Positions 1,985-60,877 of a stretch of DNA of 64,000 nt are shown here, piece by piece. The DNA is taken from positions 806,001-870,000 of the forward strand of contig JAAOMT010000502.1 in assembly GCA_016748015.1 (NCBI GenBank). The letters are read 5' to 3'. Position 1 is the first letter of the stretch, and every line of letters begins with the position of its first letter. Made by a program: the position numbers and the translations under genes. The notes under the pieces are model-generated. The model was not told where the DNA came from and made no database searches. It saw only the letters and a list, made by a program, of their open reading frames with translations. The DNA is from Geosiphon pyriformis uo1. Its lineage: Eukaryota; Fungi; Glomeromycota.

Positions 1985-2875
1985 TGTTACAGATGATTAT
2001 TTCTACTGTTGAATTAAATAACAAATCTGTAACTTGGTGCTCAAAAGCTACTTCCATGGATGAGATTCTGCAAGTGTTGTATTTGAAGGTTTTAATGGAG
2101 TCCTTTGTATAATGGACAGAGATTCAATAGTGCCAATAGTAGATGTATCTTTTCAAGAGTTTTCCCAATTTCTATCTCAATGTGGTGGCCAGATTTAGTC
2201 TGGCAGTCATGCCCTTCTGGTGAGCTATCTGATAATATATAAAATCCTACCCTTATTTCTGGGTCTTTTACCAGGCTATCCTTGACATTAATAACTCAGT
2301 ACTTAATGTTTTAATCAATTAGTATACAACATCAAAATCAAAAAAATCAAAAAAATAAAATAAAGAAAATAAAAAATAAAGAAAATAGAGAAAATAAGTC
2401 AAGGCAATTTGGTACGTTAGTATCTCATTAATAGCCATGATCAAAAGCTATTGTTCCAGCATGGTTAAGTATCAATTACTATCAACATGAAGTATTGATA
2501 GTAGAGAGTGGGTTGAGATATGGAATAATTATTTATTTGATAATTGGGAACTGAAATGTTGCTTAGATTAAATCTAAACTGAGAGGTCTGTCTTTTCAGC
2601 TTCTAATCCTATTGCTATATATACATAATTGAGATTTCTCAATTCCTCAATTCTTTGTGACAGGAATTCTGGGATTTCTGAAATCCTGCAATTCCTGATG
2701 AGAGGAATCCTGCAATTCTGGAATCCTGCAATTCCTCATTGGGGAATCTGAAATTCCTGGAATCCTGCAATTCCTCTGAGAAGAATTCTGGAATTCCACA
2801 TTTACTACATCTACTTCTGATTGGCTAATATCTTCTGACTAATAATACTATATTTTTTATATTCTATGAGTAACA
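1985..2875 (-). repeat. 3' LTR of element B (891 bp)
   Basis: TGTTAC...GTAACA; close copy at 11242-12116; abuts PPT (sense AAAAGAAGGGAATAA). Confidence 0.95.
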
Positions 2876-2888
2876 TTATTCCCTTCTT

Positions 2889-3548
2889 TTAATATTGAGC
2901 TCCATCGAAATCTAATTCTTTTAATTCTCCTTCTTGAATTATTTCTTGAACTTCTTTTTCAAGTATTACTTGTGTTATTTTATTTTGTAGTTCTTCAAAT
3001 TGGGCATTGGTTATTTTTCCCAATTGATTACTTATAACTGTATCCATTACTGTGTTGAGTAAGATTTCTGGTTGGTCTTGAAATCTCATATATAGCCGGT
3101 AAATGGCTCAAGCTTGTGTGGTTAGATTGTTCTTTCCCACAAATTGTTCTAGTTGTCCTAGTATTGTGGTGTCGAATAACCATTTTGTTTTGTCAGTGTA
3201 CAAGTTCTGGATATTTATGTGTTGTTCCAAGTAAAAATAACAATAGTTTTTTGGAAATTGTTGTAACCACCAAGTCCAAGTTTCTCTGAAAAGTTCTTGG
3301 CGTAATCCGACTATTTGTTGTTCTTTCAAAACCAATTTTATCTTGGTCATGATCTTGTCGACTACATTTTCAAGTCTTCTCTGTGCTTTGTTTTGTGGTA
3401 TTTTTGCTGTATTTTTGTAACAAATAGTTTGTTAATTGATAGTAATTTCCATTTCCTGGTGTTGGATTAATTGAAAAATTTGTTGGGCTAGTGAATGGAT
3501 ATTGTCTGTAATCTCCATTTTTTTGATCTCTTCTGTCACATTGACCAT
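2889..3548 (-). pseudogene. Element B third ORF (~219 aa, env position, unknown function), two in-frame stops
   Basis: One frame from ATG 3548 (MVNVTEEIKK...) through track ORFs 3108-3350 and 2889-3089, ending FDGAQY* just before the PPT. Confidence 0.75.
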
Positions 3549-3571
3549 GTTCTTATATATTCTTTTGTCGA

Positions 3572-11241: not shown

Positions 11242-12116
11242 TGTTACAGGTGATTATTTCTACTGTTGAATTAAATAACAAACCCGTAACTTGGTGCTCA
11301 AAAGCTACTTCCATGGATGAGATTCTGCAAGTGTTGTATCTGAAGGTTTTGATGAAGTCTTTTGTATAATAGACAGAGATTCAATAGTGCCAATAGTAGA
11401 TGTATCTTTCTAAGAGTTTTTCTAATTTTTTTCTCAGCGTGGTGGCCAGATTTAGTCTGGCAGTCATGCCTTTCTAGTAAGCTATCCGATAATATATAAA
11501 ATCTTACACTTATTTCTGGGTCTTTTACCAGGCTATCCTTGACATTAATAACTCAGTGCTTAATCTTTTAATCAATTAGTATACAACAACAAAATTAAAA
11601 AAAGAAAGAAAATAAAATAAAGAAAATAAAAAATAAAGAAAATAGAGAAAATAAGCCAAGGCAATTTGGTATGTTAGTATCTCGTCAATAGTCATGATCA
11701 AAAACTATTGTTCCAGTGTGGTTAAGTATCAATTACTATCAACATGAAGTATTAATAGTAGAGAGTGGGTTGAGATATGAAATAATTATTTATTTAATGA
11801 TTGGGAACTGGAATGTTGTTTAGATTAAATTTAAACTAAGAGGTCTGTCTTTTCAGCTTCTAATCCTACTGCTATATATACATAATTGAAATTTCTCAAT
11901 TCCTCAATTCTTTGCAACAGGAATCCTGGGATTCCTGAAATCCTGCAATTCCTGATAAAAGGAATCCTGGAATTCTGGAATCCTGCAATTCCTCATCAGG
12001 AAATCCTGCAATTCCTCTGAGAGGAATTCTGGAATTTCACATTTACTATGTCTACTTCTGATTGGCTAATATCTACTGACTAATAATACTATATTTTCTA
12101 TATTCTATGAGTAATA
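11242..12116 (-). repeat. 5' LTR of element B (875 bp)
   Basis: Direct repeat of 1985-2875; followed in element sense by TT + PBS TGGTGCTTCCTGTG. Confidence 0.95.
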
Positions 12117-15202: not shown

Positions 15203-15942
15203 TGTTATGGGTTGGAGTAACAAGCTAACAAATAGCAAGGGAGAACAGGATTGTAGGGTAATGGAAATAATCAAAGGGAATTCAACTTCAAAGAGCAAAT
15301 TGAATAAGTATAGATTTAATGTGCAAGATCAGTCTCATAAAATATCTCAGTTACTATTCTTTTTAAAGGTAACTGGAAAATCTGAAGATAGAGGAATAGT
15401 CTGTACTGTCAACAATTAATCATCACTGGTATAATTCTATGTCTTACATCAGCACTCTTAGAATTTAATATCAGGTATCAACTTGTGCTTTTCAGTCATG
15501 TTTATTCAAATAATCTTCAAATACTACAATTATATATGTCAGAAAAAGGCCAACAAGTAATTTTTTATCTTTTAAGATGTTCAGATACTTAAAGATAGAG
15601 AAAGAGAATTTTTAGTGATCAGAGAAAGATTAAGATAAAAGTTGTTATTTTATTTATTCTTGATTAATCAGATGCTTGTTATTACATACTTTTCTACAGC
15701 TAAGAGACTCATCACTTATATAGCTATTGAAAGTGGTTAATGACCAGGTCAATAATCAAGTCAATGATCAGGTCAACAGTCAGGTCATTGATCAGGTTAT
15801 TGATCAGATCAATAATCAGGTCAACAGTTAGGTCATTGATCAGGTCAATGATCACTATCTATAAATAGAGTAGGTAATTTATATAACATCAGTGGCTAAT
15901 ACATGTGATAACTAATAAAAACTATGAATTTTAATCATAACA
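15203..15942 (-). repeat. 5' LTR of A1 with expanded 12-bp (CAGGTCAATGAT-like) tandem array
   Basis: TGTTA...TAACA termini, adjacent PBS, homologous to the other A LTRs; about 9-10 repeat units at ~15740-15855. Confidence 0.9.
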
Positions 15943-17336: not shown

Positions 17337-20300
17337 TGTTATGGGTTGGAGTAACAAGCTAACGGATAGCAAGAGAGAACAGAATTGTAGGGTAATGAAA
17401 GGAATCAAAGAGAATTCAACTTCAAAGAGTGAATTAAATGAGTATGGATTCAATGTGCAAGATCAGTTTCATAAAATATCTCAGTTGCTGTATTTTTCTA
17501 AAGATAACCGGAGAATTTAAAAGTAGAGGGATAGTCTGTAATGTCAACAAATGATCACACACTGGTATAATTCTATGTCTTATATCAGCACTCTTAGAAT
17601 TCAATATCAGATATCAGATGTACTTTTCAGTCACATTTTATTCAATAGTCTTTAAATGCTGCAATTACACATTTCAGGAAAAGGGTAAAGAATAACCAAC
17701 AAGTAATCTTTTATTCCAAGATGTTCAGATATGTGAAAGTAGGAAAAGAAAAATTAGCAATAAGAGAATGATTAAGATAAAAGTTGTTATTTTATTTATT
17801 TGATTTCTATATGTTTTTCTACAACTAAGAGATTCATTATTTATATAGCTATTAAAAGTAGTCAATAATCAGATTAATGATCAGGTCAATAATTAGGTCA
17901 ATGGTCAGGTCATTAATCAGATCAATAATTACTTTCTAAAAATAGAGTGGCTAATTTATATAACATCAGTGACTAATACATGTGATAATTAATAGAAAGT
18001 ATAAGTTTCAACCATAACATCATTCTTTCCAAAGAGATTGAGCTCTGACAAAATCAAGCTATTTATGAAGTAATCTATTTGAAAAGTTTTATCTAACTCA
18101 AAGCTAACTAGTTTGTTGAAGTTTTTTGTGAATAAGGTATATAATATTTAAGGTGAAATGAGTTTTGTATTCAAGAAACCAAATCTTTGTATTAGAGGTT
18201 TGGCTTTTTTAGCAATAATTAAAACTCTTGAGACATCTAACCATATAATACCCAAAATTTCTGCCTGTATCTCTGAAGTTGTTTTCTTCATGAGTTTCAT
18301 GTTTTCTATGATTTCACCAAGGTGACTATAGAGTTCTAATTGCCTTCCATATGACAAGTTTTTGTTTATGGGTAAGATTTCTTGGAATGTTTTTTCAATT
18401 GTGTTGAAAAGTAGAAGTATAGCTGCTGTTATACTTTTCAACAGATATTTATCCATTTTACTACCAATTTTTTCTCTTCTGGTAGTAGTTTTCTTTGGTC
18501 TAATAACAGTATGTGTTCCACAGTTATCAGTTATTGTGGTTTGTTTTCCAATGTTCAGAGTAGCATTTGGATAGTTTTTGATCCAATACTCATGGAAAGT
18601 ATAGAAGGTGTTTTGAATGTTTTGATTCAGAAAATAATTGTTCATGTTGATTGAAGATACTTCTGTTTTGGAAATAGTGGATTTATTTATACTTGATTTT
18701 TGCTAATCAATTGAGTTGGTATTATCACAACAGGCAGCCAATCAGGTTATTTATAATATTTCTTGAGTTATGTACCATGAACAGGATAATCATTGAAGAT
18801 TGTTTTGGATTGATCTTAAAGAATATAAAAACCATTGTTCAAAACTTTGTTGACTATAAAAAATTTTTTCTACTGGCTAGAGAATTTATTACCATAGACA
18901 TTGTTTCTGTCTGAATGGTATTCTAATACCAAATCACTAACACTTAAAGAAAGTGTTTTATAGGTTTTCTTTTTTTTAAGCTTTTCTTGAAACTGTTTTA
19001 TCTTTTCAAAAGCAATTATTCATGCTTCTACCAAGGAGTCAAGAATGGTATCAAGTCTTCTTTGCAAAATGTCTTTGTAATTTTTTATTGTGATTTCTTC
19101 AAAGAGTATTGTCTCAATGTCAATTTCTATTGGTAGTGTTGCCATGCATTCATAGAGCAGATAAAAAGGTTCATAACTTGTTATATTATGATTTACAGTT
19201 TTATAAGCAAACAAAACTGAAAACAGTACTTTGTTTCATAAGTTTGTTTCTTTACTGATTTTGGCTAGGGTTTTACATAATGTTCTATTGAAATATTCCA
19301 TTAGACCATTTGTTTGGAGGTGGTAAGAAGAAGAAAGTTTGTGACATATTTCTATTTTCCTGCAAAGTTCTTCAACCAGTGTACTGAGAAAAGCTCTTCC
19401 TCTATCAGATAAAAGTTCTTTGGGACAGCCATGACAGCAAATGATATCTTTATAAATGAAATTGGCTATTGAGACTGCTGTTTGGTCTGGGGTGGTTCTT
19501 GCTTCTACCCACTTTGTAAGATAGTCAGTAGCTGTGATAATATATCTGTTGCCATCAGAAGTTATTGTTAAAAGTCTAACAACATCTATACCAATTCTGT
19601 CAAATAGTTGACCAACAGAGATTGGATGAATATCTTCTTTGTGATTGGGTTTACTTCTTCTTTGACAAATGTCACAGGTTTTGATGTATTCAGGAATGTC
19701 TTTTCCCAAGATAGGCCAATAATAATAAGCTAAAGTTTTCTGAATTGTTTTTGTTTTTTCAAAGTGTCTAGCTAATGAGTCAGTGTACATGTTGTATATT
19801 ACAATTTTTTTTTCTTTAAATCTGATGACTCTTTGGGGTCAGTTAGGATCTTTTCTGTTTCTTTTATATAATTGGTTCTGGTAGATTAAATAGAAATTTG
19901 ATTGTTTGCGCAAATGTTCTCTTTGCTGTTGAGTGTATTTTGGTAGGTATTGTCTTTTACCCAAAAATTTTATTAAGGCAGAGTAGTTGTCCAAGTCCAT
20001 TATCGTGTTTGTTTGTGAAAAAGTTACTAATAATTAAGTTGGTTTGGTTTGAAAGATTGTACTATTACTGGATGGTAAGTCTAGAAAGAGTGTTAACATT
20101 TTGATGATTTGCTTCTTTGCAGTGTTGAATATTATAGTCAAATTTATCTAAGTGGAGTATCTAGCAAGTTATTTATTTATGTTCCAGCTTCTTTTTAATG
20201 TGCAGCCAAACCAAGACTTAATGATCTGTTACCACTAAAAATTTTGCACCAAAGAGATATTGATCCCAGTAACTAGTAGCTCAAACTACTGCTAAACATT

Positions 20301-35459: not shown

Positions 35460-38400
35460 TGTTATGGGTTGAAGTAATAAGCTAACAAATAGCAAGGGAG
35501 AACAGAATTGTAGGGTGATGGAAATAATCAAAAAGGAATTCAACTTTAAAGAGCAAATTGAATGAGTATGGATTTAATGTGTAAGATTAGTCTCATAAAA
35601 TATCTCAGTCACTATTCTTTTCAAAGGTAACTGGGGAATCTGAAGGTAGAGAAATAGTCCATATTGTCAACAATTGATCACCACTGGTATAATTCTATGC
35701 CTTACATCAGCACTCTTAGAATTCAATATCAGGTATCAACTTGTGCTTTTCAGTCACGCTTATTCAAATAATCTTCAAATGCTACAATTAGATATGTCAG
35801 GAAAAGGCCAACAAGTAATCTTTTATCTTTAAAATGTTCAGATACTCTGAAGATAGGGAAAGGGAAATTAGTGATAAGAGAAAAATTGAGATGAAAGTTG
35901 TTATTTTATTTATTCTTGATTATTCAGATGCTTGTTATTACATGCTTTTCTATAGCTAAAAGATTCATCGCTTATATAGCTATCAAAAGTGGTCAATAAT
36001 CAGGTCAATGATTACTATTTAAAAATAAGGTGGCTAATTATATGACATTAGTGGCTAATACATGTAATAATTAATAAAAACTATGAGTTTCAACTGTAAC
36101 ATCATTCTCTCCAAAAAGATTGAGCTCTGGCAAAATCAAACTATTTAGGGAATACTCTATTTGAAGGGTTTTATCTAACTTAATACTAACTAGTTTGTTG
36201 AAGTCTTTTGTAAATAAGATATATAAAACTTGAGGCAAAATAAGCTTTGTGTTCAAGAAACCAAATCTTTGTATAAGAGTTTTGGCTCTTTTTGCAATAG
36301 TCAAAACTCTTGAGACATCTAATCGTACAATGTTCAAAATTTCCACTTGTATCTCTGAAGTTGTTTTCTTTATAAGCTTTATGTCTTCTATGATTTCACC
36401 AAAACGACCGTAGAATTCTAGTTGTCTTCCATATGACAAGTTTTTGTCTATGGGCAAGATTTCTTTAATTGTTTTTCCAATTGTGATAGAAGGTGCAAGT
36501 ATTGCTGCTATTATACTCTCTAGCAAATACTTATTTATTTTGCTACCAATTCTTTCTCTTCTGGTAGTTGTTTTCTTTGGTCTGATAACAGTATGTGTTC
36601 TATTGTTGTCAATTATTGTAGTTTGTTTTCCAATGGTCAGAGTAGCATTTGGATAGTTTTTAATCCAATACTTATGAAGAGTATAGAAAGTGTTTTGAAT
36701 GTTTTAATCTAGAAAATAATTGTTCATGTCAATTGAAGATACCTCTGTTTTGGGAGTAGTGCATTTATTTATATCTGATTTTTGCTGATTATTTGGGTCG
36801 GTATTACCATAACAGATAACCAATCAGATTGTTTGTGATATTTTTTGAGTCACGTGCCATGAACAAAACGATCATTAAAGATTGTTCCAGATTGATCTTG
36901 AAGAATATAAGAACCATTGTTCAGAACTTTGTTGACTATAAAGGGTTCTTTTCATTAGCTAGAGAATTTATCATCATAGACATTGTCTTTGTCTAAACAG
37001 TATTCCAAAACCAAGTTACCAATACTTAAGTGTTTTATGGGTTTTTTTTTTCTTAAGCTTCTCTTGGAACTGTTTTATCTTTTCAAAGACAATTATTCAT
37101 GCCTCTATCAATGAGTCAAGAATGGTACCAAGTCTTCTTTACAAAATGTTTTTGTAATTCCCTATTGTGATTTTTTCAAAGGGTATTATCTCAATATTAG
37201 TTTCTATTGGTAGTGTTGCCATTCATCTATAGAGCAGGTAAAAAGGTTTATAACTTGTTATGTCATAATTCACAGTTCTATAAGCAAACAAAGCTGAAGG
37301 CAGTACTTTGTCTTATAAGTTTGTTTCTTTACTTGTTTTGCCTAAGGTTTCACACAGTGTTCTATTAAAACGTTCCACTAGGCCATTTGTTTGAGAGTAA
37401 TAAGAGGAGGAAAGTTTGTGATGTATTCCCATTTTTCTACAAAGTTCTTCAACCAGTGTACTAAGAAAAGCTCTTTCTCTATCAGATAAAAGTTCTTTGG
37501 AGGAGCCATGACAACAAATAATATCTTCATAAATGAAATTAGCAATGAAAACTACTGTTTAATCTGGGGTGGCACTTACTTCTATCCACTTTGTAAGATA
37601 GTCAGTAGCTGTGATAATATATCTGTTGCCATCAGAAGTTACTGTTAATGGTCCAACAACATTTATACCAATTATGTCAAAGGGTTGGCCAACAGAAATT
37701 GGATGGATGTCTTCTTTGCAATTGGGTTTTTTTCTTTTTTGGCAGGTATCACAAGTTTTGATGTACTCAGCAATATTTTTTCCCAAGGTAGGCCAATAAT
37801 AGTGAGCTAAAGTTTTCTGAATTGTTTTTGTTTTTCCAAAGTGTTCAGCTAATGGATTAGTGTGTATGTTGTAGATCACAATTTCTCTTTCTTCAAATCT
37901 TATGACTCTTTGGGGGTGGTCAGGATCTTTTCTATTTCTTTTATATAATTGGTTCTGACAGATCAAATAAAAATTTGATTGTTTGTGCAAATGTTCTCTT
38001 TGCTGTCAAGTGTATTCTAGTGGATATTGTCCTTTACCTAAAAATTCCATTAAGACAGAGTAATTGTCCAAGTCCATTATTGTGTTTGGTTGTAAAAGAA
38101 TTACTAATAATTAGGTTGGTTTGGTTTGGGAGATTGTACTGTCACTTGGTGGTAAGTCTGGAAAGAGCATTGGCATTTTGATTATTAGCTTTTTTATGGT
38201 GTTGAATATCATAATCGAATTCATCCAAGTAGAGTATCTAGTGGGTTATCTGTTTATGTTCTAGCCTTTTCTTGTTGCGCAGTCAAACCAAAGCTTGGTG
38301 ATCTGTTACTACCAAAAACTTCACATCAAGGAGATACTTATCCCAGTAGTTAGTAGCCCAAACTACTGCTAAGCATTTCTGCTCAGTAACTAAATAGTTT

Positions 38401-41400: not shown

Positions 41401-43126
41401 TCTCAGTTCTTTTGTGAAGGAATGAATTTTTTGCTTTTCTGTCCAGTTCCTTCCAGAGTCTACACACTTGATCAATTTTCTGATTGCTTTGGCATATTCA
41501 GTTACAACTTCATTAGGACCTTGGATTCTTTTTTCTAATTCCATGCACCACTTGGATATCAAGATTGAGATTCTGAACTTGTTTTCAAACCAGGTTGTAA
41601 AAGAGATGTTGTTTTCTCTGGCATTTGCTGGCATTTATCTAATGATTCTTTGATGGGCATTAACATCAGTTTCTTGTAAGAACCATGTAGCAGAGAAGCC
41701 TTGGAGGTAGCCACCAACAATTTGAAACTTGTACTCATCATCGTATTGGTTGGCTGTAGCAGCTCTCTCAAAGTCATCCAATCATTCAATTAGATCTTAG
41801 ACATTACCTCTGAATAATGGTAATGGGGTGTTGTTTCTTCACCCTAAAGCAGTCTGTATACCTTGAAGAGCAATTAGAATGTTTTGTTGCAAAGAGTTTT
41901 GAGCCATTGGTTCAGGTGTAACTGTTTGTGTGGAGTGTTCTGATTCACTTAAAAAGAGATCAAAAACAGGAGCAGTTTGATAGCTTTCTTCTTCTGTTTC
42001 AAGAAGAGTTTCTGTTGATTGATGGGCAGCAATCCAAATATGAATTTAATGATTCAGATATTCAAAATCAGGGGGCTGTTGTTCAAAGGTTGCAAAATAT
42101 AAAAGCTGATTGATACTGTTGTTTTTTCCTTCAAAGTTGTCTTCAAAATAAGCTTGGTCAAAGTAATAGATTGTATAAGCTGTGTAGATTTCAGCTGAAT
42201 GCTGGTTCAAGAACCAGTTCCAAAAGTCTTGGAATTGTCTACTGGATTGTTCTTCAATGGGGAAGCAGATCAAGCAGGAGGGCAGAGGATTAAGTTCAAT
42301 GAAATCTAGGTCATTTCTATTGTGTGCTACAAAGTGTTCTTCTAATTGCTGTGACAGATATGAGTAATTACCCATACAATAAGGGAATAAGTGAATTTTA
42401 ACAACCTCACAGAGAGCACCACTTTTATGTTATGGGTTGGAGTAACAAGCTAATGGATAGCAAGAAAGAACAGGATTGTAGAGTAATGAAAATAATCAAA
42501 GAAAATTCAACTTCAATAAGCAAATTGAATGAGTATGGATTCAATGTGTGAGATCAGTCTCATAAAATATCTCAGTCACTATTTTTTTCAAAAGGTAACA
42601 AGAGAATCTAAAGGTAGAGGAATAGTCCATACTGTCAACAATTGATAACTGCTGGTATAATTCTATGCCTCATGTTGGCATTTTTAGAATTCAATATCAG
42701 ATATCAACTTGTGCTCTTCAGTTATGTTTATTCAAATAATCTTCAAATACTGTAATTACACGTTTTAGAAAAGTGGCAACAAGTAATTTTTTATCCAAAA
42801 AATGTTCAGATACTTGAAAATAAAGAAAGAAAAATTAGCAATAAGAGAATGTTTGAGATAGAAGTTTGTTATTTTATTTCTTTGATTATCTTGATTCCTT
42901 ACATTGATATTTTTCTACAGCTAAGAGATTCATTACTTATATATCTATTAAAAGTAGTCAATGACCAGGTCAATGATCAGGTTAATGATCAAGTCAATGA
43001 TTAGGTCAATGGTCAGGTTATTGATCAGGTTAATGATCACTATTTAAAAATAGGGTGGCTAATTATGTGACATCAGTGGTTAATACATGTAATAACTAAT
43101 AAAAACTATGGGTTTCAACCATAACA
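35460..43126 (-). mobile_element. Family A copy A6, two LTRs (35460-36101, 42428-43126), full internal region, no matching TSD
   Basis: ORF3 36071-36526, IN 37559-37990, RH/RT 38283-39337, PR 39803-40738, gag 41116-42375, PBS ~42405-42421. Flanks ATGT and TTAC differ. Confidence 0.9.
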
Positions 43127-46100: not shown

Positions 46101-47503
46101 ATTGGTTACCAGTTGTGGTAATACTGACCCAAATAATCAGCAAAAATCAGATATAAATAAATGCATCATTTCTAAAACAGAGGTATCTTTAATTAACATG
46201 AACAATTATTTTTTGGATCAAAATATTTAAAATGCTTTCTATACTCTCCATGAGTATTGGATCAAAAATTATCCAAATGCTACTCTGACTATTGGAAAAC
46301 AAACCACCATAACTGATAATAGTAGAACACATACTGTTATTAGACCAAAGAAAACATCTACCAGGAGAAAAAAAATTGGTAACAAAATAAATAAGTATCT
46401 GCTGGAAAGCATAACAGCAGTAATACTTGTACTTTTCAACACAATTGGAAAAACAATCAAAGAAATCTTGCCCATAGACAAAAACTTGTCATATGGAAGA
46501 CAACTAAAGCTCTATGATTGTCTTGATGAAATTATAAAGGAGATGAAACTCTTAAAGAAAACAACTTTAGAGATACAGGCAGAAATTTTGGGCATTATAT
46601 GGTTAGATGTCCCAAGAATTTTAACTATTGCTAAAAGAGCCAAAACTCTAATACAAAGATTTGGTCTCTTGGATACAAAACTCATTTCGCCACAAATGCT
46701 ATATATCTTATTTACAAAAGATTTCAACAAAATAGTTAGTTTTGAATTAGATAAAACCCTTCAATTAGAATATCCCATAAATAGTTTGATTTCACCAGAG
46801 CTTAATCTCTTTAGAGAGAATGATGTTATGGTTGAAACTCATAGTTTATATTAGTTATTACATGTATTAGCCATTGATGTCATATAAATTAGCCACTCTA
46901 TTTATAGATAGTAATCATTGACCTGATTAATGACCTGACTGTTGATCTGATCATTGACCTAATCATTGACCACTTTTAATAGCTATATAAGCAATGAGTC
47001 TCTTAGCTATAGAAAAGTATGTAATAACAAGCATCTAATTAATTAAGAATAAATAAAATAACAACTTTGATCTCAATCCTTCTCTGATCACTAAAAATTC
47101 TCTTTCCCTACTTTCAAGTATCTGAACATCTTAAAAGATAAAAGATTACTTGTTGGCCTTTTTCTAATGTATATAATTATAGCATTTGAAAATTATTTAA
47201 ATAAACATGACTGAAAAGCACAAGTTGATACCTGATATTGAATTCTAAGAGTGCCAATGTAAGACATAGAATTATATCAGTGGTGATCAATTGTTGACAG
47301 TATGGACTATTCCTCTACCTTCAGATCCCCCAGTTACTTTTAAAAAGAATAGCAACTGAGATATTTTATGAGACTGATCTCGCACATTGAATCCATACTC
47401 ATTTAATTCATTCTTTGAAGTTGAATTCCCTTTGATTATTTCTATTACCTTACAATCCTGTTTTCCCTTGCTATTTATTAGCTTGTTACTCCAACCCATA
47501 ACA
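43127..47503 (+). mobile_element. Family A 3' half (RT end, RH, IN, ORF3, 3' LTR 46824-47503), interrupted by solo LTR C
   Basis: ORFs 43225-43581, 43842-44234, 45489-46033 and 46468-46854 colinear with 53.05-56.4 kb. Confidence 0.9.
44223..45214. mobile_element. Solo LTR of a third family (C), 992 bp
   Basis: TGTTAC...GTAACA termini, perfect 4-bp TSD CTAT, integrase sequence resumes after it; internal AATTCGCCGAAAT-type repeats. Confidence 0.88.
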
Positions 47504-47790: not shown

Positions 47791-49443
47791 GAAAGAAAGA
47801 AGTTTTTTTTATAAAATTATTAAAACTTGTTAAATTTTAAGTTTTTTAAAAGATGTTTTGCTATTATTATTAATTTTATTAACTTTTTTATTTTTTGTTT
47901 TAAATAATATTTTATATATTACTTTTTGTAAAAATTTAATTTGTAAAAATAATTTTAATAATATTAAAATAATCATTATAAAATTAGTTGTTTTTATAAA
48001 ATAATTAATATTATATTACAAAAACAGAATTTAATTATATAAATTTAAATATAAAATTATAATAAAAAAAGTAGTTTAATTAGAAATAATAAGTTAACTT
48101 CTTATAATTTATATAATTTATTAAGTAAAATTTTTAATAAAATAATATATTTGTTTAGTATTATTAAATTTTTGTAATAAAAATTTATTTTTATTATATG
48201 TATTTGTTTTTTAAGTTTAAATGATAATAATATTATATATATAAATATATAATATAGTTTTAACTGATTTAAATAACTAATATATATAATAAATATGTAA
48301 ATTATATTTAGTTAAAAATACTTAATTTGTTTTTATATATATTTTTTTATTAAAATTTAATAAGTATAGTCTAATTACTATCTAATATACAAAGTTAAAA
48401 CTAAGAATCCTAGCTAAATACAATTCATGTTTTTACTACATATGATTAGTTATTTGGATCAATTAAAACAATATTATGTCTTTATATAAATCATTATATC
48501 AGACCAGAAAAAAACAAGCAGAGTTTGCAAAAACCAAAGCTAATCACAAAAGACTCATTAATACTAATTAATCTAATTATTCTGTTTAATAAATTTGATA
48601 TCAAATTATAAAACTCATTAAATACTATTCTGAAATTATTAATTAAATCACATTTTTCTATATCTGTCTTATATTTAAACCTAAAACTTCACAAATCAAA
48701 ACAATGTTATTTACCCAAACCACTGTTTTTATATATTAAAAAAATAATTAAGTTGTGTTTATTAAATATTTTAATAAAATAAATAAATAAATATATGCTT
48801 AAATACATAATAACAATAATATTGTTACGATTGAAACCCATAATTTTTATTAATTATCACATGTATTAGCCACTGATGTCATATAATTAGCCACTCTATT
48901 TTTAAATAGTAATCATTGACCTAGTTGTTGACCTGGTCATTGACCACTTTCAATAGCTATATAAGCAATGAGTCTCTTAGCTGTAGAAAATTATCTTTCA
49001 GACAAGAATCAAATAAATAAAAATAACAACTTTTATCTCAATCACTCTCTTATTACTAATTTTCCTTTCCCTACCTTCAAGTATCCGAACATTTTAGGAT
49101 AAAAGATTACTTGTTGGCCTTTTCTTAACATATATAATTGTAGCATTTGAAGATTATTTGAATAAACATGACTGAAAAGCACAAGTTGATATCTGATATT
49201 GAATTCTAAGAGCACCGATGTGAGACATAGAATTATACCAGTGGTGATCAATTGTTGATAGTATGGACTATTCCTCTACCTTCAGATTCCCTTGTTACCT
49301 TTTGAAAAGAATAGTGACTGAGATATTTTATGAGACTGATCTCGCACATTGAAGTTGAATTCCCTTTGATTATTTCCATCACCCTACAATCCTGTTCTCT
49401 CTTACTATCCATTAGCTTGTTACTTCAACCCATAACATAAAAG

Positions 49444-49460
49444 TGGTGCTCCCTATAAGG
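49444..49460 (+). promoter_or_regulatory. Primer-binding site, complementary to elongator tRNA-Met 3' end
   Basis: TGGTGCTCCCTATAAGG; consensus of 7 PBSs in the window is TGGTGCTCCCTGTGAGG, the reverse complement of CCTCACAGGGAGCACCA, close to recalled eukaryotic elongator tRNA-Met 3' ends. Confidence 0.75.
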
Positions 49461-49489
49461 TCGTCAAAATCCACTTTGTTTCCTATTGT

Positions 49490-51029
49490 ATAGGTGATTA
49501 TTTATACCTGTCATAACAATCAGAAGAACATTTTAAAACACACAACAAAAACAATCTAGACTTTTCTTTTGCCCTTCTGCTTGATTTGCTTTCCCATTAA
49601 AGAACAATTCAGTAGACAATTCCAAAACTTTTGGAACTGGTTCTTGAATGAACATTCAGCTGAAACTTACATAGCTTATACAATCTATTACTTTGACCAA
49701 GCTTATTTTGAAGACAACTTTGAAGAAAGAAACAACAGTATCAATCAGCTTTTATATTCTGTAACCTTTGAACAACAGCCCCCTGATTTTAAATATCTGA
49801 ATCATCAAATCTACATTTGGATTGCTGCTCATCAATCAACAGAAACTCTTCTTGAAACAGAAGAAGAAAGCTATCAAACTGCTCCTGTTTTTGATCTCTT
49901 TTTAAGTGAATCAGAACACTCCACACAAACAGTTACACCTAAATCAATGGCTCAAAACTCTTTGCAACAAAACATTCTAATTGCTCTCCAAGGTATACAG
50001 ACTGCTTTAGGGTGAAGAAACAACACCCCATTACCATTATTCAGAGGTAATGTCTAAGATCCAATTGAATGATTGGATGACTTTGAGAGAGCTGCTACAG
50101 CCAACCAATATGATAATGAGTACAAGTTTCAAATTGTTGGTGACTACCTCCAAGGCTCTTCTGCTACCTGGTTCTCACAAGAAACTGATGCTAATGCCCA
50201 TCAAAGAATCATTAGATAAATGCCAGCAAATGCCAGAGAAAACAACACCTCTTTTACAACCTGGTTTGAAAACAAGTTCAGAATCTCAATCTTGATATCC
50301 AAGTGGTGCATGGAATTAGAAAAAAGAATCCAAGGTCCTAATGAAGTTGTAACTGAATATGCCAAAGCAATCAGAAAGTTAATCAAGCAAGTAGACTCCA
50401 AAAAAAACTGAACAGAAGAACAAAAAATTCATTTCTTTACAAAAGGATTGAGAACTGACTTATCTTATGCTCTTTGGCCTCTTTTGGCTTTGAAAGACAA
50501 CCCTACAATGGACATGGCTATTGAACTTGCCCAAAGGATTAAAGATAACCAAAGAATGTAACTGGGATTCACACTTCCAGTTTTTGCTCCTGCTCCTGCC
50601 ATGGCCCCTGCTCCTCAAATGGCTGCTACTTTTTTTGCTGCCCAAACCCAAAACCCAAATGAACAATTAATAGATAGACTTACAGCTAACCTTGCCTGGT
50701 TATTAGAACTGTTGGCACAAGCAGTCAGAGATAACCAGTAACCACCAAGATCTAGATATGAATCTCGTTTTAACCAGCCCCAGCAACCTTCCTATCAAAG
50801 ACAGCAAAATCATGGCCCACCTGTGTGCTATTGTTGTGGATTAACTGGACATTATTCAAGAGATTGTAACAATTCTCCACTGCCTCCTCCAGCTCCCAAA
50901 AACAATGACAACCAAAACAACAGACTCAACAACAATGTTCCCAATCAAAGACCCAATCATGCCAACATTAATTTTTTTGGAGAGGATCTCCTAGTTGAAA
51001 CCACTGTTTATCAGTCTTTAAACTGGTAA
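49490..51029 (+). pseudogene. A7 gag, disrupted
   Basis: Track ORFs 49569-50015, 50220-50411 and 50823-51029 with knuckle CYCCGLTGHYSRDC. Confidence 0.85.
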
Positions 51030-51055
51030 GCACACTTCCAAAGGGTGAGAGTGCA
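51017..51055 (+). promoter_or_regulatory. -1 ribosomal frameshift signal (T TTA AAC plus downstream stem) joining gag and pol
   Basis: Heptamer in correct gag phase just before the gag stop; pol (51113) is the -1 frame; GCAC...GTGC stem starts 6 nt downstream; heptamer retained in A1, A4, A5 and A6. Confidence 0.85.
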
Positions 51056-54000
51056 AGCCAACCAGAAGAAAACTTCTTTTATGCTTTTAACTTAACTGAT
51101 GATGACCATGACATGGATGAACTAGCAATCAACACCTCAGAACCAACCAGAAAGAAGAAGAAAGCCAAGGTTGATTTCATTCTAGACCCCAACAAAGTCT
51201 CAACTTCTGCCACTAATAACAATAAGCCACTAAAGGCTAAAGTTTTTAAGAATTCTCCAAAGTTGGAACCCCCAGAAATTGTACAAAAATCTGGACTCTA
51301 TTCCATTGTTAAAGATCTCATGGAAACTCCAGCACATATTACCTTTGGCCAGTTAATGACCCACCCACAGTTCAGAAAGGATCTTTGCAAATCCTTAATC
51401 CCAAAGAAGAAAACACCAAAAACCAACAAGCACTCTTGTCAAGCTGGACTTACTGACAACAACAATGTCACCTCTCTGATTTGTAAAGCCCAAGTGGCTG
51501 AATACTTTATTGACTTAATTCTGGACAGTGGATTATCTGTTAGTGTCATTGTCAAACACTTCTTAGAAGCAATTGGTAAAAAGATTGATGAACCTTTCAC
51601 CAGACCAATAACCAACGTACATGGTGACAAAAAGAAAAGACTGGGTATTGCCAAAGCTGTTCCTGTCTACATCAATGGAATTAGTATTGAAACTGACATG
51701 GAAGTTTCTGAAGCCAAAGAATACACCATCATTGTTGGCAATGAATGACTCAAGAAAGCAAAAGCTTTGCTTGATTATGAACTTTGTGAATTAACCATCA
51801 GATGTGGTGAGAAACCCATTGTGGTTAAGTGTCATCATTGGACAACTCTCCCAGTACCCAAACAAAACCAAGAAGAAGAACAATCAGATAAATCAGATAA
51901 TGAAGAGAGTGATGAAGAAGAAGAACAAAAAAAGCAAGAAGAAACTGCTGAACTCACCTATACCACCTTTACCAGCAATGGCAAATCACTGGACAATGTT
52001 AAAGCAGACAAAGAAGGAATCATTGTAAATGGCAAGCTGATCTGCTGGCCTTATTATGATATCCTTAGAAAAATCTTTGAAAGAAAACCTGGCAAGAAAG
52101 CCAAATACAGTTTTTGGTGGCATGGTTCTTGTGTCTGGTGTTGGTGCAACAAACCCTTGTATTCTCCAAGTGATAAATGCAAATTATGCCTGATCTATTA
52201 CAGAGATTGGGAACCAATCAGTTTGATACCCAGAGAAGAATTGAAAAAAGTACAGAAGTCCTTTGAGAATGAACCACCTGAGATCCAATTACTGGTTGTG
52301 GAACAAAAAAAACCCTCTCCAGAAGAAAGAAAAATAGACATTGAAAATTTGCTGGCTAGAAATAGCCCAGTTATCTCCAAAGAAGATGATACCCCTGGAC
52401 GTACCCATGTGATACAATACACTATCACCACCAAAAAAACTCGACTCATCCATTTGAAGCCTTATCAATTCAATCGGCACAATGATGAGTTTATCAAGAA
52501 AGAAATAAACTGGATGAAAGAACTTGGATTCATACAAGAAACCAAGAATGAATGGGCTTTTTCAGTTGTAGTGGTATCCAAGAAAAGTGGAAAACTATGC
52601 TTCTGTGTTGACTACTGCCAATTAAATGCCATCACTAAAAAAGACATGTATCCACTTCCCAAGATTGATGCAATGTTAAATCAATTCAAAGATGCTGCTT
52701 TCTTCTCAATCATTGACTTAACTGCTGGATTCTGGCAAGTAGAGATGGATCCAGAAAGCAGAAAGAAAACTGTCTTTATTACCAAGTATGGCACCTATGA
52801 ATTTACAGTCATGTCTTTTGGTCTCACCAATGTCCTTCCCACCTTTTAATGCTTAATGGATAAAGTATTTGAATCAGTCAAGGAAAACTTTGTTCTAGTC
52901 TATTTGGACGACATAATGGTATACTCAAAAACCTGGGATAAACACCTGGAACATTTGCAAAAGGTTTTTGACCTCTTTAGAAATGCTGGCCTCAAGATCA
53001 ACCCTACAAATCTTTTTTTGGAAAACAATCCACTTAGTTTCTTGGTCATCTTATCACAAAAGATGGAATTTTTCCTGACCCAAAGTTGAAAAAGTCCAAA
53101 ACATCAAACAACCAATGAATATTTATGAACTACACTCTTTTCTTGGTTTGGCTTCTTATTATCACAAATTTGTCAAGGATTTCTCCAAAATCGCCTCTTC
53201 TCTCAATCAGCTACTCAAGAAAAATGTCAATTACCATTGAAAAACACATCAGCAAAAAGCCTATGAAACTTTAAAAGAAAAACTGGTTACAGAACCCATC
53301 CTCAAGCAACCTAATCTAGATCGACCCTTTATCCTCCATACTAATACATCTGGCTTTGGACTTGGTGCTGTTCTCTTCCAGAAAGATAAAGATGGCAAAG
53401 AACATACTATAGCCTATGCCAGTAGAATCCTTTTCCCAGCAGAACAGAACTATTCAGTTACTGAACAAGAATGCTTAGCAGTAGTATGGTCCACCAGTTA
53501 CTGAAGTAAGTATCTTCTTGGTGTGAAGTTTTTGGTGGTAACAGATCACCAAGCTTTGGTTTGGCTGCACAACAAAAAGAGGCTAGAACACAAACAGATA
53601 ACTCACTGAATACTCCACTTGGATGAATTTGACTATGATATTTAACATTGCAAAAGAGCTAATCATCAAAATGCTGAGACTCTCTTCAGACTTACCATCC
53701 AATGACAGAACAACCCTCTTAAACCAAACCAACTTAATTATTAGTAATTTTTCCTTTTTGACAAACACGATAATGGACTTGGATGACTACTCTGCCTTAA
53801 TAGAATTTTTGGGTAAAGGACAATACCCACTGAAATACACACAACAACAAAAAGAACATTTGCGCAAATAATCAAATTTCTATTTGATTTGCCAGAACCA
53901 ACTTTATAAAAGAAATAAAAAAGATCTTAACTGCCCCCAGAGAGTTATCAGATTTGAAGAAAGAGAAATTGTGATCTACAATATGCACACTGATTCATTA

Positions 54001-55086
54001 GCTGGACACTTTGGAAAAACAAAAACAATTCAGAAAACTCTAGCTCATTATTATTGGCCTACCTTGAGAAAAGACATTGCTGAATACATTAAAACCTGTG
54101 ATATCTGCCAAAGAAGAGGAAAACCCAATCGCAAAGAAGATATTCATCCAATCTCTGTTGGTCAATCCTTTGACAGAATTGGTATAGATGTTGTTGGATC
54201 TTTAACAATAACTCCTGATGGCAACAGATATATTATCACAGCTACCGACTATCTTACAAAGTGGGTAGAAGCAAGAGCCACTCCAGACCAAACAGCAGTC
54301 TCAATAGCCAATTTTATTTATAAAGATATTATTTGTTATCATGGCTGCTCCAAAGAACTTTTATCTGATAGAGGAAGAGCTTGTCTTAGTACACTTGTTG
54401 AAGAACTTTGCAGAAAAATGGGAATACGTCACAAACTTTCCTCTCCTTATTACCTCCAAACAAATGACCTAGTGGAACATTTTAATAAAACACTATATGA
54501 AACCCTAGCCAAAACCAGTGAAGAAACAAACTTATGAGACAAAGTACTGCCTTCAGCTTTGTTCGCTTATAGAACTGTGAATTATGACATAACAAGATAT
54601 GAATCCTTTTATTTACTCTATAGATGAATGGCAACTCTACCAATAGAAACTGACATTGAGACAATACCCTTTGAAGAAATAACAATAGAGAATTACAAAG
54701 ACACTTTGCAAAGAAGACTTGGTACTATTCTTGACTCATTAGTAAAAACATGGATAATTGCCTTTGAAAAAATAAAACAATTCCAAGAGAAGCTTAAGAA
54801 AAAGAAAACATATAAAACACTTTCCTTAAGTGTTGGTGACTTAGTTTTAGAATACTGTTCAGACAGAGACAATGTCTATGGTAATAAATTCTCTAGCTGG
54901 TGGAAAAGACCCTTTATAGTCAACAAAGTTTTGAACAATGGTTCTTATATCTTACAAGATCAATATGGAACAATCTTCAATGATCACTCTGTTCATGGCA
55001 CACGACTCAAAAAATATTACAAATGACCTGATTGGTTATCTGTTGTGGTAATATCAACCCAAATAATCAACAAAAATCAGATATAA
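51017..55086 (+). pseudogene. A7 pol (PR, Cys-rich linker, RT, RNase H, integrase), disrupted
   Basis: LILDSG (51113-51748), RT (51767-53089, YLDD), IN 53884-54537 and 54628-55026; several stops and frameshifts. Confidence 0.92.
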
Positions 55087-55127
55087 ATAAATGTACCATT
55101 TCCAAAACAGAGGTATTTCCAATTGAC

Positions 55128-55784
55128 ATGAACAATTATTTTTTAGATCAGAACATTCAAAATGCTTTCTATACTCTCCATGAGTACTGGATTAAAAACT
55201 ATCCAAATGCTACTCTGACCATTGGAAAACAAACTACAATAATTGACAACAATAGAACACATACTGTTATCAGACCAAAGAAAACAACTACCAGAAGAGA
55301 AAGAATTGGTAGCAAAATAGATAAGTATTTGCTAGAAAGCATAACAGCAGCAATACTTATACCTTTCATGACAATTGGAAAAATTATTAAGGAAATCTTG
55401 TCCATAGACAAAAACTTGTCATATGGAAGACAACTAGAACTCTATAGTTGTCTTGGTGAAATCATAGAAGAAATAAAGCTCATGAAAAAAACAACTTTAG
55501 AGATACAAGTGGAAATTTTGGGCATTATACGTTTAGATGTCCCAAGAGTTTTGACCATTGCAAGAAAAGCCAAAACTCTTATACAAAAATTTGGTCTCTT
55601 GGATACAAAGCTTATTTCACTTCAAGTACTATATACTCTATCCACAAAAGACTTTAACAAACTAGTTAGTTTTGAGTTAGACAAAACCCTTCAATTAAAA
55701 TATCCTATAAATAGCTTGATTTCACCGGAGCTCAATCTCTTTGAAGAGGATGATATTATGGTTGAAACCCATAATTTTTATTAA
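55128..55784 (+). CDS. A7 third ORF, 218 aa, intact, unknown function; runs through the PPT into the 3' LTR
   Basis: Open from MNNYFLDQ to VETHNFY*; homologous frames at 18148-18645, 36071-36526 and 46468-46854. Confidence 0.75.
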   Translation: MNNYFLDQNIQNAFYTLHEYWIKNYPNATLTIGKQTTIIDNNRTHTVIRPKKTTTRRERIGSKIDKYLLESITAAILIPFMTIGKIIKEILSIDKNLSYGRQLELYSCLGEIIEEIKLMKKTTLEIQVEILGIIRLDVPRVLTIARKAKTLIQKFGLLDTKLISLQVLYTLSTKDFNKLVSFELDKTLQLKYPINSLISPELNLFEEDDIMVETHNFY

Positions 55785-56396
55785 TTATCACATGTATTAG
55801 CCACTGATGTCATATAATTAGCCACTCTATTTTTAGATAGTGATCATTGACCTAGTCGTTAATCTGGTCATTGACCACTTTCAATAGCTATATAAGCAAT
55901 GAGTCTCTTAACTGTAGAAAATCATCTCTCAGACAAGAATCAAATAAATAAAAATAACAACTTTTATCTCAATCACTCTCTTATTGCTAATTTTTCTTTC
56001 CCTACCTTCAAGGATCTGAACATCTTAGGATAAAAGATTACTTGTTGGCCTTTTCTTGACATATATAATAGTAACATTTGAAAATTATTTGAATAAACAT
56101 GACTGAAAAGCACAAGTTGATACCTGATATTGAATTCTAAGAGCACCAATGTGAGGCATAGAATTATACCAGTGGTAATCAATTGTTGATAGTACAGACT
56201 ATTCCTCTATCTTCAGATTCTTTTGTTACTTTTTAAAAAGAATAGCAACTGAGATATTTTATGAGACTGATTTCGCACATTGAATCCATACTCATTCAAT
56301 TCACTCATTGAAATTGAATTCCCTTTGATTATTTCTATCACCCTACAATCCTATTCTCCCTTGCTATCCATTAGCTTGTTACTCCAACCCGTAACA

Positions 56397-56958
56397 ATAT
56401 TATTATTATTTAATATATTTAAAAAATATTTAAAAAAAATTGTTTATTAATAAAAATTTGTTTTATATAAAAAACAATTAAAATTTTAGAATTAACTTAA
56501 TAAAATTATAGAAAACATAAAATTTTTAAAGAAAACAACTTTAAAAATACAAATAAATTTTTTAAATATTATATAATTAGATGTTTTTAAAGTTTTAATT
56601 ATTGTTAAAAAAATCAAAATATTTATATAAAAATTTGGTTTTTTGAATACAAATTTTATTTTTTCTCAAATTTTATATATTTTATTAACAAAAAATTTTT
56701 CAAGTTAATTAGTTTTAAATTTAACAATATTTTTAAATAAAATATTTCTTAAATAGTTTGATTTTACCAAAGCTTAATTTCTTTGGAAAAAATAATATTA
56801 TAGTTAAAAACCATAGTTTTTATTAATATTACATGTATTAGTCATTTTATTTTTAGGTATTAATTGTTAATCTGATCAATGATTTGGTTGTTGACTTAAC
56901 TATTAACTTGATCTGATAAATAACCATTAATTAATAACTCAAATTTTGCCTGGTAACA
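56397..56958 (+). mobile_element. Ancient AT-eroded A-related element (ORF3 3' part plus ~163-bp LTR 56796-56958) into which A7 inserted
   Basis: Aligns by eye to A ORF3/PPT/LTR start once C>T and G>A are allowed; the left flank of A7 (~48775-48822) supplies the preceding KIDKYLLESITAAI-coding segment; ends GGTAACA. Confidence 0.7.
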
Positions 56959-58456: not shown

Positions 58457-60877
58457 ATGCCTTCGACGTCAAAATTGCGAACCAATCTTCCTTCAGAAAT
58501 AACTCTTTATTCAGAAAATCATAGGTCGCTATTGCTTGATACTTCTAGTGATGACGGCAGCCAAGAAAGCGAAGAGTCTGAGGCATTTCTGCAGGAGTGC
58601 CGGATTGTGAGAATATATATATTTAATGCTCTGAAAAAAAAAAAACAGGTAAGGTGCAGTTTATTCTCTATAGCTTTAAACCCTTCAAGTAGTCTTTGGT
58701 ATTATCAATTACAATTCTTAACCTTTCAAGTCTAGAAACGCCACATAATTTTCTCGCTTTAATCGAGTGAATTAAATTTTCCCATTTTCAAAAGTTCAAC
58801 CCAATATCGATTTACAATTTACCATCAAAAAAAGATTAAAAATTCCAAATTTTTTAAAAGACCCCACCAATTTGATCTTTCTTTTTCTAAAGGGTGATTC
58901 GGTGGACTATGAGCACATAATTCACCAATTGAAAGCTCCTCCTAACAGTTCAGATGCCCTTCCCCCTCAAAGATTACTTTTTTGGATCATGGGCTTCTCC
59001 CAGAATACATCTTTGATGAATATTTCTTTTCGTCCCCTCGTAAAAGCAATAATTGATATGGACTGGATTACTCACGATGAGAATATACTCCGGAAATTTC
59101 TTGGATTTCTTCGGAGTCTCATTTGTGCGCATTCATGCTATGCTATGGAAGCTCTTAAAATGACGATCAGAAAATTCACCCGTGGTAAATGTTTATTTAT
59201 TTGACTATCCTAATAATTGCTAAAATATAACTTAAGTCTTTTTCTGTATATATTGTTCAAAACTAACCTCAGATAATACTGCCTTCGTTAACACAGAGCC
59301 AGATTTTGGTACGGCTCATGACAAAGATATATTTAGTACCAATCTTCATCGCATAGTTAAGGTTTTAATAAATGCTACTGAATCATGGGGGTCCTCGGTT
59401 TTTCCTATCGTTGAACGTGAATTTCCACATATGCAAGACTCACGATTAGCTCTAGTTAATTACATTAAGAATTTGTTGCTCATGATTGGTTATGCCACGG
59501 ATCTTCGATCTAAAGTACTCCAATTAATTATTGAAAGAATCCTTCTCATTGACGTAAGTTTTTACACTTCTCAATTTACCTGAGTGAAATTATTGCTCAA
59601 ATATTCAACATATTTCAACTTGAAATCATACTCAGACTGAAATTCAGGGAAGTATCGAGGAGGCTGAGGAGGCTGAAGATGAGATTGAAGCCTTTGATTT
59701 AAGGTTGTATTTCAATAATTGCAAGCCAGAAGCAGGAGTAATAACAAATAAAGTTCCAAAAGGCATCAGTTCAGACATTGAAATGTCTGATGATAAGAGT
59801 GACATGGATATGAACGAGGTTTCCAGCGACTTTGAATTGGAATCAGAAGAGTCCGATCTCGATGATAACACAGGTGGTGTCGTTAAAATTGATGCAAGAG
59901 ATATGATGGAAAAGCTAGATTGCTGCATGAAATTATTATTTGATTACTTGTATTATGGTGACAAAATACCTATGTCTAAAGCAACAGATACAAATGATGC
60001 ATTCCAAGATCTAATGAGAATATTTTCGACGACAATCCTGCCCACTTTCAAATCTCGATACACTCAATTCTTATTGTTTTGGCATATATCCTTAAATGAA
60101 TCGTTTCTTGAAACTTTCATAGCAACTCTATTCAGCAATCTTTTGAATGAAGATTGTCCTCAAGGCGAGAAAATCTCCTCTGCCTTGTATATAGGTTCCC
60201 TCGTAGCTCGAGCAAAATTTATTGAGGAAAGAACTGTGAGATCTTGTGTGAAAATGCTTGTAACAATTGGACGACAAGAAATAGTCCTCGTTCAACACGA
60301 TGTATACGGCTCAGACCCTGATAAATATGGTGTATTCTATTCAATAGCTCAGGCTCTCATGTACATTTTCTGTTTCCGTTGGAAGGATCTAGTTGCCAAA
60401 GAAAATAAGGAATTCAATCAAGACCAGAATGGAGGATTTAAAAATATTGTGCAAGACCACATTGGGCATTTGAAATGGTGCTCTGAAATAGAAGGATTTG
60501 AGGATTTAATCACCTCCCCCCTTGAACCCTTAAAGGTATCAGAATAATCAGCCAATTTTTGCGTTGTTTCTTATTCATCGTGTGGGGAATCTTATAAAAT
60601 TTCTATAACACAGGTTTGCGCACCAGATATCGTGAAACAATTCGTAAGATTATCAGGAATTCTTCGTTTCTCATATTGCTACTCCTTATTATCAAAAGGA
60701 AAAAGATGCATAATGCCCAATCGTGTAGCAGGCGATGAACAGGGAGAAGCGCCCATGCGGCTTGATCAATTCACTTTTTTTCCTTTTGATCCATTCCGGT
60801 TAAAAACTTCTCAATGCTACTTAAATGGTTTATATAGAGAGTGGGAGGAAGTAAATCTTGCCGATGAAAATGAATGA
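58457..60877 (+). CDS. RRN3: RNA polymerase I transcription initiation factor RRN3 (TIF-IA), 5 exons, ~642 aa
   Basis: Exons 58457-58648, 58893-59184, 59273-59553, 59636-60535 and 60614-60877 join in frame via GT-AG introns; motifs ID-TEIQ, acidic loop, LPTFKSRYTQFLLF, FYSIAQALMYIFCFRW, PLKVC, FFPFDPF. Confidence 0.93.

Follow-up and report, generated by a model that had tools for sequence, protein, structure and literature searches.

In plant long terminal repeat (LTR) retrotransposons, extra sense open reading frames (ORFs) without database match have been described family-wide between pol and the 3′ LTR (available text of PMC7264820), and in bdelloid rotifers a non-env third ORF is gained, lost and shared (available text of PMC5408684). 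Here, we analyzed a stretch of 64,000 nucleotides from the fungus Geosiphon pyriformis uo1 (contig JAAOMT010000502.1, positions 806,001 to 870,000; the whole stretch is referred to as the window) that contains Ty3/Gypsy elements of two divergent families, A and B. The copy A7 of family A carries a third ORF, ORF3, downstream of the integrase, which is a selected, non-Env accessory gene of this lineage.

Foamy virus Tas is similar to ORF3 in 3′ position and size, and it overlaps U3. It is also an accessory gene with an internal promoter, and its product binds both the LTR and the internal promoter and acts on the LTR (PMC4929722, PMC13220597 and PMC8670036, available text). Tas differs in that no sequence or fold link to ORF3 was found and no env is present here; it would serve as a functional model, not as a family assignment. 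The plant ORFs resemble ORF3 in their family-wide slot, and gene23 of maize Grande is nuclear and has its own promoter; however, the plant sense ORFs are env-like with membrane segments, and those with their own promoter are antisense, as is the ORF of fungal Boty (available text of PMC7264820). ORF3, by contrast, runs in the sense direction, is apparently soluble and extends across the purine tract into U3. The bdelloid elements further resemble B in a dUTPase between protease and reverse transcriptase (RT), but their ORF3s encode GDSL esterases, DEDDy nucleases or membrane proteins and are described as typically spliced (available text of PMC5408684). Pfam scans of 10 and 23 ORF3-type proteins gave no match to these families, GDSL and DEDDy included. 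The ORF3 family was not found in the protein libraries or literature searched, nor was a description of extra ORFs in Glomeromycotina Gypsy elements found in that literature; the available text of a fungal survey (PMC3248453) and of mycorrhizal-transposon papers (PMC11952901, PMC8647823) mentions no such ORF. ORFs in this slot behind pol are thus already known as a kind; new is an undescribed, clade-wide family, likely with its own promoter, in elements with a split integrase.

ORF3 is a selected, non-Env gene

The initial annotation had reported a sense ORF of 218 amino acids between integrase and 3′ LTR in family A. This open frame was confirmed as 218 uninterrupted codons downstream of the A7 integrase pieces; it contains the purine tract and ends approximately 30 nt inside U3. 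The copies of ORF3 in family A are:

55128..55784, forward strand: ORF3 of A7, 218 amino acids, open; basic helical core at ~88-181, acidic tail, last ~10 codons in the 3′ LTR
55743..55753, forward strand: polypurine tract of A7, inside ORF3
46198..46851, forward strand: second A ORF3 copy, one stop (codon 11)
36074..36727, reverse strand: third A ORF3 copy, one stop (codon 8)
17992..18645, reverse strand: fourth A ORF3 copy, one stop (codon 166)

The intactness of ORF3 in the otherwise broken A7 had been offered as evidence for a gene. It is attributable to chance, with 3 stops in 4 copies and, in CAA/CAG columns, 3 of 32 cells in ORF3 versus 5 of 36 in the integrase; because the other three copies each hold one stop, the openness of A7 is no extra evidence. 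The excess of integrase stops was traced to CGA/TGG-type columns.

The evidence for a gene comes from substitution patterns. The comparison of nonsynonymous with synonymous substitution rates (dN/dS) suggested with the initial annotation gave values of 0.19-0.37 among the four window copies of ORF3. Transitions inflate synonymous counts, and therefore a context-matched neutral simulation was used, in which the substitutions of each pair were redistributed in dinucleotide context (500 simulations per pair). In the six pairs of window copies, the synonymous share of differences in ORF3 was 0.40-0.54 versus a neutral mean of 0.29-0.32, and the observed share was reached in 0, 12, 0, 0, 1 and 0 of 500 simulations, respectively. 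Elsewhere the synonymous share was 0.12-0.35 (other frames) and 0.37-0.44 (integrase). ORF3 is a real gene frame under purifying selection.

As Env characteristics we took a signal peptide, a C-terminal membrane anchor, a furin site, conserved cysteines and a size of about 500-600 amino acids. In agreement with the initial annotation, Env features are not evident in the A7 protein, which has no furin site, one cysteine and a borderline top 19-residue hydropathy of 1.65 (residues 69-87; 0.33-0.85 in the three closest metagenomic homologues tested). Hydropathy and motif scans of 29 ORF3 proteins (139-241 amino acids) revealed neither a membrane anchor nor any furin site or cysteine pattern common to the proteins: hydropathy of at least 1.6 was reached by just two, at differing places, and RxK/RR occurs scattered in four, with none in A7 and B. 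By hydropathy scan only, neither a signal peptide nor a C-terminal anchor was found in the family, whose C-tails are acidic. In a fold comparison with viral fusion proteins, the structure model used had a predicted local distance difference test (pLDDT) score of 59. That ORF3 encodes a reduced, Env-like or membrane protein serving passage from one nucleus or hypha to another would suit the env position and orientation of ORF3, the one hydropathy window of A7 at 1.65, and the occurrence of short membrane ORF3s in bdelloid Vesta elements (available text of PMC5408684), but with hydropathy peaks in 2/29 proteins at differing places, few cysteines and no shared furin site it is highly improbable. 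By these features, ORF3 is not an Env.

The ORF3 family and the membership of A and B

Soil metagenomes were scanned with the A and B integrase cores; 443 relatives were confirmed, and the best 80 of these 443 were used (loci with L numbers). Loci were judged if at least 900 nt of downstream sequence was available, which held for 33; the 47 shorter ones were left out. In 26 of the 33, a sense ORF of 139-241 amino acids belonging to one family follows right after the integrase. These 26 ORF3s were chosen by eye; three of them nearly duplicate others, one of these being truncated at the end of its contig, and the 23 non-redundant ones scored 27.6-147 bits in a leave-one-out check versus ≤9.2 bits for reversed sequences. 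Nearly every family ORF3 either terminates at the purine tract or reads across it. Of 33 ORF3 proteins, 30 have a basic conserved core and 27 an acidic tail; the long forms, A and B among them, seem by eye to have an extra N-terminal helix-strand module. One family ORF clusters with a Dentiscutata erythropus protein. The remaining seven loci comprise four without ORF3, two unassigned and one with an unrelated helix-turn-helix (HTH)-like ORF, namely L021:1524-1886 (121 amino acids, weak HTH matches), which stands in place of ORF3, has a TATA at −47 and carries a GAGCTC motif.

An A-type ORF3 profile matched ORFs directly behind the integrase in five loci (E 4e-11 to 2e-3), and full-length homologues are present in metagenomes at 24-33% identity. 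A7 scored 16.5 bits against a family profile built without it (0/500 shuffles), and A ORF3 matched the family in profile-profile comparison at 92.9% (E 3.8e-7; 0/60 block shuffles); after removal of six A-like loci, the A7 match dropped to 6.3 bits (4/500 shuffles). By these comparisons, A firmly joins the family. In database searches, A ORF3 had at least 130 matches; among the 120 matches listed, 118 are named hypothetical proteins of G. pyriformis, and one of those listed shows full identity across 97% of the query length.

Elements with similar integrases tend to have similar ORF3s (Mantel rho 0.67, 0/999 permutations), with at least one swap. In an integrase tree of 37 rows (midpoint-drawn, unrooted, base unresolved), ORF3 is scattered over all main branches and three ORF3-less loci share one starred branch, a pattern that, for an unrooted tree, fits an old ORF3 gene with losses. 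ORF3 is dispensable in some sub-lineages and swappable. The loci L028 and L035 share integrase and LTR start and carry different ORF3 subtypes, that of L035 being 50% identical to the one of distant L069; this represents either a module swap or an assembly chimera. The earlier suggestion of an ancestral accessory protein of the lineage holds insofar as ORF3 is old, selected, non-Env and clade-wide. Two of its arguments fall away, the intactness in A7 and the presence in a much older relative: the sequence at 56397-56844 belongs to family A itself, as a copy with 71% identity in which C>T or G>A accounts for 102 of 161 mismatches and inside which A7 sits.

Ty1 p22, which represses transposition and is made from an internal promoter, illustrates a self-limiting factor. 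A role of ORF3 as such a repressor, or as integration cofactor tethering the integrase to target DNA in the slot that a chromodomain occupies in chromoviruses, would be in line with its position directly behind an integrase in which Pfam finds no chromodomain (the broken pieces of A7 were scanned) and with its mostly common descent with that integrase. The close integrases of L028 and L035 (76% DNA identity) with different ORF3 subtypes argue against a tight partner, and the 41.2% of the G. pyriformis genome made up by LTR elements (available text of PMC11952901) argues against strong self-limitation; we consider this role improbable.

For element B, the relevant features are:

2889..3548, reverse strand: ORF3 of B, two internal stops; likely start ATG at 3518 (209 amino acids); probable family member
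3553..3559, reverse strand: TATA box of B, 41 nt upstream of the ATG at 3518
1985..2873, reverse strand: 3′ LTR of B (5′ LTR at 11242-12114, with 91% identity); an A copy is the insertion site of B, which encodes a dUTPase
55727..55735, forward strand: GGAGCTCAA motif of A7, upstream of the polypurine tract; in B at 2903-2895 in another codon frame

The third ORF reported for B at 2889-3548 is indeed a sense ORF in the same slot, but is interrupted at codons 39 and 147. Direct comparison of the A and B ORF3s gave no similarity (best blastp E 1.2, profile probability 0.2%). The C-terminal pattern that had been seen by eye in both falls in the conserved family core for each, although the homology of B is statistically weak. 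Against the family profile, B gave E 0.0019 over 84 columns in the register seen by eye, a value reached by 2 of 60 block shuffles; other alignments gave E 0.004-0.3, and the core-only test E 0.075, no better than the best shuffle. The best core score of B was 7.3 bits, whereas 425 gag/pol decoys scored up to 9.1 bits and 1000 shuffles up to 13.9 bits. All 111 database matches of B ORF3 are from G. pyriformis, and 43 of them begin at the second-Met sequence (ATG 3518).

A less probable reading is that A and B hold unrelated genes in the same slot and that only A belongs to the family, a question of homology and not of function. The failed direct comparison, the core score below the best decoy and best shuffle, a core charge that is not clearly basic (+2, −1, +5, −2) and the unrelated ORF of L021 all speak for it. 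On the other side, B aligned in the same register throughout the alignments printed (84 columns in two runs, 77 in the core run), and 26 of 33 judged clade members carry the family. Kinship is favored because B agrees with A in slot, length, TATA spacing and the GGAGCTCAA motif, the exact form of which occurs just twice in the window, upstream of the purine tracts of A7 and B. B ORF3 therefore probably belongs to the family of A, the register fitting and the statistics not; A/B homology is suggestive only.

Expression and proposed function

The putative promoter of ORF3 in A7 lies just upstream of the gene:

55082..55088, forward strand: TATA box, 46 nt upstream of the ORF3 ATG, at the same place in 4/4 window copies

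The pattern TATAWA[AGT] was found 31-70 nt upstream of the first ATG in 15 of 26 ORF3s (shuffles: mean 2.8, maximum 8) and at 4 of 35 integrase starts. B and L039 fit this spacing from the second Met, which was noticed after the count. Between integrase stop and ORF3, the gap varies from −41 to +1358 nt, and this variation speaks against both readthrough and coupled reinitiation. Where the distance is usually no more than 170 nt, it amounts to 1.1-1.4 kb in L039 and L050, a spacing that fits an independent promoter better than reinitiation. The simplest reading is an internal promoter from which a short mRNA is made, with its end in the 3′ LTR. Judged by the motif only, a TATA promoter of its own likely drives ORF3, and the sequence speaks for internal initiation more than for splicing.

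The best mechanism we can offer, at a probability of roughly 40%, is that ORF3 encodes a Tas-like transactivator made from its own promoter. The protein would be a nuclear DNA-binding switch for the LTR of the element. The proposal draws on the layout of Tas, to which ORF3 corresponds as a small protein with a basic helical core and acidic flanks, encoded at the 3′ end with overlap into U3 and probably made from an internal promoter. Its short mRNA would start about 15-25 nt before the ATG and end in the 3′ LTR, and its binding site would lie in U3, which carries short tandem repeats, or in the internal promoter. Three central helices are predicted to pack in an HTH-like manner. The structure model of one homologue is confident for these helices only; they overlay the HTH region of ParB/Spo0J weakly (2.2 Å over 42 residues), and Atlas structure rows for this domain were weak as well.

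Several observations weigh against this proposal. Helical bundles would show this degree of HTH likeness by chance, the model is not reliable in its N-terminal half, and the acidic tail is partly imposed by the purine tract. No TATA was found in the counted window of 11 of 26 ORF3s. A direct test of autoregulation was negative, as the words shared by the internal-promoter region with its own LTR and with those of others were similar (8.1 versus 7.8 nt; 1129/5000 permutations, 21 elements), the 12-nt match in A7 (10-12 nt in A) being one case in 21. L009, L019, L030 and L033 have no ORF3, and ORF3 is therefore not needed for LTR activity throughout the clade. Two metagenome pairs had dN/dS values of 0.38 and 0.49 at near-saturated dS. 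Finally, the basic helical core fits RNA binding equally well.

ORF3 could accordingly be an RNA-binding factor for export or chaperoning of genomic RNA, or provide the route of the integrase to the particle, e.g., via the motif before the purine tract. The core is basic, and the integrase, encoded by an ORF of its own in 47 of 49 loci, needs a route into the particle. Moreover, a GGAGCTC-type motif is kept in differing codon frames, and three ORF3-less loci carry a GGACG-type motif instead. However, L019, L030 and L033 have a split integrase without ORF3; GAGCTC or AGCTC precedes the purine tract in 13 of the 23 ORF3-bearing loci inspected and is missing in the other 10; and an own promoter would decouple ORF3 from genomic RNA levels. 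We regard an RNA-binding role as unlikely.

Rather unlikely, too, is that ORF3 counters host silencing by small RNAs or CpG methylation, acting via binding to element DNA with removal of its methylation or via binding to silencing proteins. Rhizophagus transposons are methylated and produce small RNAs (available text of PMC8647823), the window copies decay by C>T and G>A, and ORF3 dN/dS values of 0.12-0.22 versus 0.02-0.15 for the integrase, together with lineage swaps, resemble an arms race. But no pair exceeds a dN/dS of 1, and faster change than in an enzyme core is normal for any non-enzyme. The anti-silencing role overlaps with that of a transactivator, and sequence cannot separate the two.

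If ORF3 is a transactivator, the circuit of the clade may, tentatively, be a convergent copy of that of foamy virus Tas, in which a swappable ORF3/U3 module would set family specificity.

Element layout and neighboring features

In the window, decayed LTR elements form a nest, and A7 is a dead Ty3/Gypsy copy. A7 and B both have the paired LTRs, primer site, purine tract and target duplication of Ty3/Gypsy elements, and the order protease, RT, RNase H, integrase is that of Ty3/Gypsy (Metaviridae). The further parts of A7 and its surroundings are:

48823..49437, forward strand: 5′ LTR of A7, with a TGG-type primer site immediately behind it; the 4-bp target duplication ATAT flanks the element
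49438..53705, forward strand: decayed gag-protease-RT-RNase H region, 13 stops, three aligned blocks in different frames
53773..55086, forward strand: integrase ORF with its own ATG, broken by stops; end at 55026 or 55086
55754..56396, forward strand: 3′ LTR of A7; its alignment with the 5′ LTR over 616 bases shows 42 differences (39 transitions)
56397..56844, forward strand: older AT-decayed family-A copy (ORF3 end and LTR start) into which A7 is inserted

The integrase at the end of one Pol polyprotein, as in canonical Ty3/Gypsy elements, is not the rule in this clade. In A7, the RNase H frame stops at 53703 and the integrase ATG follows 70 nt later at 53773 (Pfam rve and Integrase_H2C2 at 53983-54534). 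An RNase H stop precedes the integrase in 6/6 window A copies and in B (about 5020-4960), and an in-frame stop lies 91-163 codons before the integrase core in 47 of 49 loci, with the first Met at 86-96 codons in 42 of 49. The gap amounts to tens of bases or more and is not a stop/start overlap. Integrase starts have a purine at −3 (32 of 35) and G at +4 (30 of 35). The three-gene element envisaged in the initial annotation is to be amended to the layout gag-pro-RT-RNase H, a separate integrase ORF and then ORF3. YPYY-motif Gypsy integrases and Ginger1 resemble the elements studied here in a YPYY-looking N-terminal motif (by eye), 4-bp duplications and TGTNR ends; in the available text of PMC2836005, no separate integrase ORF or third gene is described for YPYY retroelements, and Ginger1 is a DNA transposon.

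A structured RNA motif of 40 nt that ends shortly upstream of the integrase ATG was observed at L055:2271-2316 and in 24 other loci, with the next ATG 9-24 nt on in 24 of 25. Double changes occur in 8 of 13 predicted pairs (21 aligned sequences); no Rfam match was obtained in eight loci, and the window lacks the motif. As a candidate function, it may serve in translation initiation or packaging. The U3 of A contains a 12-bp repeat in about 3 to 10 copies (15735-15854, 42957-43039, 55835-55875), and its 10-nt core recurs inverted at 54977-54986, about 100 nt upstream of the internal TATA. Target duplications of 4 bp are ATAT at 48819-48822/56397-56400 (A7) and CTGG/CCGG at the B ends 12114 and 1985. 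Cys-rich inserts between protease and RT (B: 8114-7554, reverse strand; A: about 52150-52260) had no Pfam match at cut-off. An N-terminal gag extension of ~200 amino acids with a His/CxxC motif precedes the capsid domain in A (49560-49750) and many loci (L059:2675-3300); that of B looks different. The dUTPase of B lies between protease and RT at 7434-6800 on the reverse strand (E 1.5e-18); among retrotransposons, dUTPase had been reported only in basidiomycetes before the rotifer cases (available text of PMC5408684). An exon of the host RRN3 gene at 59783-60547 (E 4e-63) adjoins the nest.

In the G. pyriformis genome, pieces of ORF3 have been annotated as hypothetical host genes (at least 130 of A type and 111 of B type), and the family thereby inflates gene counts. 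For the clade as a whole, we would only tentatively describe an env-less complex retroelement with three units expressed separately, namely gag-pro-RT-RNase H, a free integrase and a gene with an internal promoter for a sequence-specific transactivator, which may have an undescribed DNA-binding domain. The functions of extra ORFs are mostly open in plants and rotifers, and an ORF3 family with apparently intact members, a predicted promoter, natural losses and natural swaps yields a question that is testable in yeast with a reporter.
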